Position numbers and translations under genes: made by a program
Assembly: GCF_003334405.1 (NCBI RefSeq)
Contig: NZ_QOWM01000001.1
Direction: 5' to 3' (one strand)
Source of the DNA: Escherichia coli
GTDB taxonomy: Bacteria > Pseudomonadota > Gammaproteobacteria > Enterobacterales > Enterobacteriaceae
DNA length: 64,000 nucleotides
Shown: piece after piece, positions 12,874 to 14,334 of the stretch
Numbering within the stretch: position 1 is the stretch's first letter
How the letters are laid out: each line of letters opens with the position of its first letter
The notes under the pieces: generated by a model
Told to the model about the DNA's origin: nothing
The model's input: the letters and a program-made list of their open reading frames with translations, nothing else
The model's database searches: none

Positions 12874-12922
12874 CGATCTGGATCACATTCGTTAACAAAA
12901 CGGCTGTAACCGTTTCCATTGC

Positions 12923-12938
12923 TGTGACTCGATTCACG
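12923..12938. promoter_or_regulatory. CRP-binding site upstream of galS
   Basis: tgtgactcgattcacg fits TGTGA-N6-TCACA; adjacent gal-operator-like ctgtaaccgtttccat. Confidence 0.5.
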
Positions 12939-13014
12939 AAGTCCTGTATTCAGTGCTGACAAAATAGCCGCCAGCAAGCAGTCATTTACTGCAATCTCAT
13001 AACAGGTAGTGAAT

Positions 13015-14055
13015 ATGATCACCATTCGTGATGTAGCGCGTCAGGCTGGCGTCTCTGTGGCAACGGTTTCCCGGGTGCTCAATAACAGCACGCTGGTCAG
13101 TGCCGACACGCGTGAAGCAGTAATGAAAGCCGTGAGTGAGCTGGATTATCGGCCAAACGCCAATGCCCAGGCGCTGGCAACTCAGGTTAGCGACACCATT
13201 GGCGTGGTGGTGATGGACGTTTCTGATGCGTTTTTCGGCGCGCTGGTAAAAGCGGTGGATCTGGTCGCTCAGCAGCATCAGAAATACGTGCTAATCGGCA
13301 ATAGCTATCATGAAGCGGAAAAAGAGCGTCACGCCATTGAGGTGTTAATTCGCCAGCGTTGTAATGCGTTGATTGTTCACTCAAAAGCATTGAGTGACGA
13401 TGAACTGGCGCAATTTATGGATAACATTCCCGGTATGGTGTTAATCAACCGCGTTGTGCCGGGGTACGCCCATCGTTGCGTTTGCCTGGATAATCTCAGC
13501 GGTGCCCGAATGGCGACGCGCATGTTGCTGAATAACGGTCATCAACGTATTGGTTATCTTTCTTCCAGCCACGGCATTGAAGATGACGCCATGCGTAAAG
13601 CAGGCTGGATGAGTGCGTTGAAAGAGCAGGATATTATTCCGCCGGAAAGCTGGATTGGCGCTGGTACGCCGGACATGCCGGGCGGTGAGGCGGCGATGGT
13701 TGAACTGCTGGGGCGCAATCTACAACTTACCGCTGTATTTGCTTATAACGACAATATGGCCGCTGGCGCACTGACAGCATTAAAAGATAATGGCATTGCG
13801 ATTCCGTTACATCTCTCAATCATCGGTTTCGATGATATTCCCATCGCCCGTTACACCGACCCGCAATTAACGACCGTGCGTTATCCCATTGCTTCAATGG
13901 CGAAATTAGCCACCGAACTGGCCTTGCAGGGGGCAGCAGGCAATATTGATCCTCGTGCCAGCCACTGTTTTATGCCGACGTTAGTGCGTCGCCATTCTGT
14001 CGCAACACGCCAGAATGCGGCGGCGATCACTAACTCAACAAATCAGGCGATGTAA
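13015..14055 (+). CDS. galS: LacI-family galactose isorepressor GalS
   Basis: ORF 13009..14055; start placed at second Met ([24 protein letters not shown]...) giving 346 aa. Confidence 0.9.
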
Positions 14056-14067
14056 CCGCTTTCAATC

Positions 14068-14083
14068 TGTGAGTGATTTCACA
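14068..14083. promoter_or_regulatory. CRP-binding site of the mglBAC promoter
   Basis: tgtgagtgatttcaca is a perfect TGTGA-N6-TCACA palindrome; gal-operator-like atgtaaccgctttcaa just upstream overlaps the galS stop. Confidence 0.7.
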
Positions 14084-14334
14084 GTATCTTAACAATGTGA
14101 TAGCTATGATTGCACCGTTTTAACGTTGTAACCCGTATGTAACAGTGAATAATCACTTTTGCCGAGGTAACAGCGTCATAACAACAATTAAAGCCGTTTT
14201 CTGGAGCGTTACCGGGCATGGAAGAACGAATTTTAAAAAGTGAGCTTCGGCGTTCAGTAACACTTCATTAACTCTACTGCCCCGCCGAGCATTTATCTCA
14301 AGCACTACCCTGCATAAGAAAAACCGGAGATACC

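Follow-up and report, generated by a model that had tools for sequence, protein, structure and literature searches.

CRP and GalR/GalS sites at the galS and mglBAC promoters of Escherichia coli

CRP and GalR/GalS have been known since the early 1990s to control galS and mglBAC, and the resulting circuit of the gal regulon serves as a model of the incoherent feed-forward loop. The transcription starts were reportedly mapped, and autoregulation demonstrated, by Weickert and Adhya in 1993 and by Geanacopoulos and Adhya in 1997. The galETKM promoter P1 has the same order of elements as the galS and mglB promoters (galSp and mglBp), a 16-bp GalR/GalS operator followed by a CRP site and the start, and responds to the same proteins and the same inducer. 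Its external operator (OE) is centred at -60.5 and its CRP site at -41.5, which gives an operator-to-CRP distance of 19 bp. galE differs in having, in addition, the promoter P2, a strong internal operator (+53.5) and HU-dependent looping. Unlike galE, mglBp has a single operator, and the downstream operator of galSp is weak, with synonymous sites that are not conserved. As in galSp, the centre of a consensus CRP core in galP (TGTGATTTGCTTCACA) follows a perfect-palindrome operator (GTGTAAGCGATTACAC) at a distance of 19 bp; unlike galSp and mglBp, galP also has a distal operator upstream (CTGAAACCGATTACAC). The galP promoter also receives NagC input.

The galS-mglB locus was examined in a 64,000-nucleotide stretch of E. 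coli DNA, hereafter the window. Positions 12600-14500 match E. coli K-12 MG1655 with 100% identity and were found in 5,426 of 5,426 complete E. coli genomes. The gene order on the plus strand is yeiB-galS-mglBAC, with yeiB annotated at 11716-12873, galS at 13015-14055 and mglB at 14335-15333, followed by mglA and mglC. NC_000913.3 coordinates are obtained by subtracting the window position from 2254683, the last base of galS (14055) being 2240628. An earlier note made from the sequence had pointed out a CRP site preceded by an operator-like motif ahead of both galS and mglB. These pairs are the previously mapped CRP and GalR/GalS sites of the K-12 galS and mglBAC promoters. Since this control is already known and annotated in RegulonDB, the core finding adds no new biology; the agreement with the mapped sites shows that the earlier note had read the motifs correctly down to the base. 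Some forward value attaches only to a conserved element at -93.5, presented last.

Layout of the galS and mglB promoters

The galS external operator (OE, CTGTAACCGTTTCCAT; read from the sequence as ctgtaaCCGtttccat) is a 16-bp GalR/GalS operator on the plus strand at 12904-12919, centred at 12911.5 (-61.5). The CRP site follows at 12920-12941 on the same strand. Its core TGTGA-N6-TCACG, read as TGTGActcgatTCACg, spans 12923-12938 and is centred at 12930.5 (-42.5), 19 bp from the operator centre. The plus-strand extended element TGaCAAAAT (12957-12965) is taken as the probable -10 of galSp from its position and conservation, with a transcription start at about 12973. This start follows from Table 3 of PMC2763269, where the galS mRNA begins 42 nt ahead of the ATG (13015), and is consistent with the RegulonDB site positions. 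A further plus-strand operator (OI, GTGGCAACGGTTTCCC) is annotated downstream at 13057-13072 (PMC5110547, RegulonDB), centred at 13064.5 (+91.5/+92.5), within the galS codons for a helix-turn-helix motif (V-A-T-V-S-R). The earlier note, correct for the two upstream operators, had missed it.

Two other features of this region were considered. A hairpin AAAACGG-N6-CCGTTTT over the galS operator was rejected as a terminator of yeiB, as its left arm varies without compensation and a T-run is absent; a terminator scan found no plus-strand match at this hairpin. The first five codons of galS (ATGATCACCATTCGT, 13015-13029) have a synonymous conservation of 0.91, the highest in the gene, which probably reflects a constraint on translation initiation.

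The mgl operator (mglO, ATGTAACCGCTTTCAA; read as atgtaaCCGctttcaa), also a 16-bp GalS/GalR operator on the plus strand, occupies 14050-14065 and is centred at 14057.5 (-59.5). As the earlier note had observed, it overlaps the galS stop codon in E. coli, the TAA at 14053-14055 falling within it. The 22-bp CRP site (14065-14086, plus strand) has its core TGTGA-N6-TCACA, read as TGTGAgtgattTCACA, at 14068-14083 and its centre at 14075.5 (-41.5). It shares one base pair (14065) with the operator, and the two centres are 18 bp apart. The site pairs, which had been called matching, are thus alike in layout and not identical in spacing. The -10 hexamer TATGAT lies at 14105-14110 (plus strand), and CTATGAT is invariant in the mglBp footprint alignment. 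The start at about 14117 was placed by counting from the annotated CRP centre at -41.5. At the -35 position the hexamer is CAGTAT, a match at one of the six bases.

From this start, the mglB leader runs about 218 nt to the mglB ATG (14335); its length is given as about 250 nt in PMC3119520 and ranges from 191 to 222 nt across 79 species. Conserved blocks in the leader (14117-14334) are ATGTAAC-GTGAtTAATCAC at 14137-14157, CTGGAGCGTTACC at 14201-14214 and CTACCCTGCAT at 14302-14312. RNAalifold gave essentially no consensus structure for the leader, and no Rfam match to it was found at E up to 1. A leader peptide starting from the ATG at 14222 was discarded, as this ATG is ACG in most species. 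A simple sigma-70 scan missed galSp and mglBp, as would be expected where a promoter depends on CRP and its -35 element is poor. The one match it gave was a cryptic promoter-like TTGTAA-16-AATAAT within the leader (14126-14153). In the arXiv version of the Reg-Seq study, transcription begins at a new start once a single change near +30 of mglBp has produced a consensus -10, a position that fits the AATAAT of this sequence.

Mapped sites, motif statistics and conservation

RegulonDB, as given in the Reg-Seq supplement (10.1101/2025.05.13.653802), places GalR/GalS at -61.5, CRP at -42.5 and the downstream operator at +91.5/+92.5 of galSp, and GalR/GalS at -59.5 and CRP at -41.5 of mglBp. With starts at 12973 and 14117, these positions correspond exactly to the centres 12911.5, 12930.5, 13064.5, 14057.5 and 14075.5. 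The mapped operators therefore coincide with the motifs, and none was found elsewhere in these intergenic regions. RegulonDB rates the evidence for the GalR/GalS sites of both promoters as weak. An operator at 2240618-2240633 (TTGAAAGCGGTTACAT) and the galS OI at 2241611-2241626 are listed in PMC5110547; they correspond to 14050-14065 and 13057-13072 in the window. By GalR ChIP-chip, the same study found peaks at 2240625 and 2241771 (14058 and 12912 in the window), and the motifs inferred under these peaks are identical to the mgl and galS operators (ATGGAAACGGTTACA at 2241771). Occupancy of both operators by the repressor in vivo is supported by this published GalR ChIP-chip. Another operator of that list, 'O (mglB)' (GTGCACCGGATTTCAC, 15136-15151), lies inside mglB and is absent from the top 25 matches of the operator matrix described below.

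Published genetic and expression data bear on the same positions. A recurrent operator-constitutive G>T change of mgl, 3 bp past the end of galS, corresponds to G14058, part of the central CG of the operator; it causes semi-constitutive expression of mglBAC and sweeps glucose-limited chemostats (PMC2763269, PMC7863352). A later adaptive change at 2,238,630, which corresponds to G14075, is placed in the CRP site by the same sources. Activator footprints of CRP were recovered at galSp and mglBp by Reg-Seq (10.1101/2025.05.13.653802), and footprints of the GalR/GalS operators were recovered at neither promoter. Both galS and mglB are among the CRP targets found by genomic SELEX, and the galS and mglB reporters of Kaplan et al. 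increase with cAMP. The proposed fit to gal regulon autoregulation and cAMP control is supported by the RegulonDB positions together with these ChIP-chip, Reg-Seq, SELEX and reporter data.

The gal operator consensus of PMC5110547 is a 16-bp hyphenated dyad with a central CG (GTGNAANC.GNTTNCAC), in which positions 3 (G), 5 (A), 9 (G) and 15 (A) are genetically critical. The galS and mgl operators are both full 16-bp hyphenated dyads with a central CG (CTGTAACC.GTTTCCAT and ATGTAACC.GCTTTCAA) and both have G3, A5, G9 and A15; the earlier note had recognized them in front of the CRP sites and described them as half-palindromes, which they are not. A symmetric 16-bp operator matrix was built from galE OE and OI, galR OE and the two galP operators of MG1655, excluding the sites under test. 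With this matrix, the galS operator ranks first in the 64 kb (17.6 bits) and the mgl operator second (15.0 bits), where about 0.04 and 0.21 such matches are expected per 64 kb of random first-order Markov sequence. A site between lysP and cirA (TTGTTATCGTTTGCAT, 7724-7739), which is the 'F13' GalR operator from 3C data, scores 9.7 bits.

The CRP cores are present at both promoters as the earlier note had read them, and they match at least 9 of the 10 half-site bases. The pattern TGTGA-N6-TCAC has six strand matches at four places in the 64 kb, compared with 0.29 expected, and none of 100 shuffles reached six. A CRP matrix was assembled from 16 classic sites, and its scores are rough; as a positive control, it recovered the two known CRP sites of cdd in the window. 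The mgl site scores 16.7 bits and ranks third in the window (0.06 expected). The galS site scores just 10.3 bits and ranks eleventh (6.6 expected), so that the matrix score alone is insufficient; it is the exact core, the position and the conservation that make this site convincing. Further strong CRP-like sites were found about 100 bp upstream of preT/yeiT (20741-20762, 18.6 bits) and in the dusC-yohJ divergent region (24106-24127, 16.4 bits), and tandem sites 50 bp apart upstream of cdd (22896-22917 and 22946-22967, 18.7 and 12.3 bits). All of these match known or SELEX-predicted CRP targets.

Conservation was examined by scanning species-representative genomes with MglB, which gave 80 Enterobacteriaceae loci. 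The galS gene is directly upstream of mglB in 80 of the 80. Across these species, the operators, the CRP half-sites and the -10 elements are conserved at both promoters; at galSp, the CRP spacer and the operator-CRP linker drift. In the galS operator, conservation among the 79 distinct orthologous sequences reaches at least 80% at 14 of 16 positions, and in the mgl operator it reaches at least 95% at 15 of 16. The spacing from the operator to the CRP centre is 19 bp in 79/79 distinct sequences at galSp and 18 bp in 80/80 sequences at mglBp. The galS stop is the TAA of the operator TGTAAC (14050-14055) in only 25 of 79 orthologous loci, and lies 12-15 bp upstream of the mgl operator in the remaining ones. 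The coding sequence of E. coli galS thus extends into the mgl operator, which gives GalS a C-terminal tail of six residues (STNQAM). Two loci of Citrobacter amalonaticus stand out. In strain S646, the galS-mglB spacer is 473 bp and the operator-plus-CRP pattern was not found there; in strain AUH_CA_2023_1, the longest single tblastn match to GalS has 128 residues. The locus may be disrupted in either strain.

Mode of repression

Taken together, galSp and mglBp are almost certainly CRP-dependent sigma-70 promoters of the gal regulon, activated by CRP at about -42, repressed by GalS/GalR at an operator at about -60 and induced by galactose. A cAMP-CRP dimer at about -42 would substitute for the missing -35 contact and activate transcription. 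With CRP centres at -42.5 and -41.5 and poor -35 elements, both promoters have the class II position by the convention of Busby and Ebright; the Reg-Seq supplement labels the same arrangement class I. Without galactose, GalS or GalR would bind the 16-bp LacI-family operator, one and a half helical turns further upstream, and cover the DNA on which the C-terminal domain of the RNA polymerase alpha subunit docks beside CRP. By analogy with galE P1, the bound repressor may block or misdirect the contact of this domain, and open-complex formation would be stopped until D-galactose releases the repressor. For galE OE, repression is reported to act through the alpha subunit, with open-complex formation blocked (PMC5110547, citing others), and GalS at mgl is credited with the same outcome in PMC7863352. 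Repressor bound at galSp would account for autoregulation. As CRP activates galS, and GalS in turn represses mglB, galE and galP, the control by CRP completes the known incoherent feed-forward loop.

That the motif pairs arose by chance and regulate nothing is hardly conceivable. The one point in its favour is the modest matrix score of the CRP site of galS; the motif statistics, the conservation over 80 species, the genetic data and the binding seen in vivo all contradict it. Another possibility is that the repressor at mglBp competes directly with CRP for overlapping DNA, RNA polymerase not being the target. The shared base 14065 and a spacing of 18 instead of 19 bp would agree with this, and Kaplan et al. 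explain the monotonic response of mglB to cAMP by the partial overlap. However, the overlap consists of one flanking base, and GalR and CRP are annotated as co-bound at galE with a spacing of 19 bp; competition is regarded as unlikely.

Repression of galS might alternatively proceed mainly by DNA looping between 12904-12919 and 13057-13072, like the OE-OI-HU loop of galETKM. The downstream operator is annotated and was named OI in PMC5110547, where the galS ChIP-chip peak covers its motif, and it ranks fourth in the 64 kb with the operator matrix. Its score of 10.9 bits nevertheless falls short of the maximum that random sequence reaches on average (13.3 bits), and ChIP-chip probes cannot resolve sites 150 bp apart. 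The synonymous conservation of the codons concerned (15-20) is 0.33-0.70, not above the gene mean of 0.64, and a similar stretch occurs at the equivalent helix-turn-helix codons of galR. The match may thus arise from no more than the need to encode the universal V-A-T-V-S-R of the helix-turn-helix motif. The operator centres are also 153 bp apart in galS, compared with 114 bp in galE, and the operator-matrix scan gave no comparable second site near mglBp. A mainly looping mechanism is thus considered improbable, and interference with the alpha subunit at the upstream operators is the preferred explanation at both promoters.

Conserved elements at -93.5

A 38-bp block immediately upstream of the galS operator (12866-12903) is conserved as strongly as the operator itself. 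It is intergenic and nearly invariant, just past the yeiB stop, and reads AGATAACGATCTGGATCACAtTCrTTAACAAAAyGG. Reg-Seq (10.1101/2025.05.13.653802) revealed an activator footprint near -95 of galSp, in stationary phase and on acetate or galactose, to which no factor was assigned; the block coincides with it. It contains a CRP-like 22-mer (GATAACGATCTGGATCACATTC, 12869-12890) that matches the right two-thirds of the CRP consensus. The 22-mer is centred at -93.5 of galSp, 51 bp upstream of the main CRP site. Its score is modest (7.1 bits; P ~0.007 for a 13-position window), and of the positions searched from -46 to -58 it is the best CRP-like one in every one of the 79 orthologous sequences.

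Other identities were considered for this block. A third gal operator was rejected because of mismatches at the critical positions 5 and 15, and on reading the sequence no convincing match to the IHF or Fis consensus was seen. The likeness of GATCACATTCGT (12881-12892) to GATCACCATTCGT at the galS start (13017-13029) was treated as a coincidence, as it is confined to Escherichia-like upstream sequences, most other genera having GATCACAATCATT.

At mglBp, an element TG(T/C)GG-N6-TCACT (14016-14031) is located in the last galS codons, centred likewise at -93.5. Most species have the TGTGG form, and TG(T/C)GG-N6-TCACTAAC (14014-14034) is kept across genera with a free spacer. The galS codons 338-340 (ATC ACT AAC) have synonymous conservations of 1.00, 0.94 and 1.00 in 72 species, compared with the gene mean of 0.64; just 1.5% of galS codons are as constrained. 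With the CRP matrix, this candidate scores -0.7 bits in E. coli and at most 9.1 bits in other genera, and its conservation is confounded with that of the coding sequence. No second CRP-like site was found at the same offset in galE and galP.

The preferred reading, which is tentative and may well be wrong, is that both promoters carry a weak second CRP site at -93.5, so that the operator would lie between two CRP dimers in a CytR-like arrangement. With this second site about five helical turns upstream, they would count as class III (tandem CRP) promoters. If these sites are real, galSp and mglBp would resemble CytR-type promoters such as cdd (22896-22967) and deoP2, in which a LacI-family repressor is positioned between two CRP sites, the elements here being those at about -41.5 and -93.5. 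The distance between the CRP sites is 50 bp in cdd, compared with 51 and 52 bp to the candidate elements of galSp and mglBp. GalS and GalR bind DNA alone, whereas CytR needs CRP. The upstream elements are weak in E. coli, with 7.1 bits at galSp and -0.7 bits at mglBp, compared with 12.3 bits for CRP-2 of cdd. A second CRP site at -93.5 of galSp would explain the Reg-Seq activator footprint near -95 and thereby give it a transcription factor. It would also refine quantitative modelling of the gal feed-forward loop, for instance with regard to the steep response of galSp to cAMP, for which a Hill coefficient of about 2 is reported (PMC2516365).
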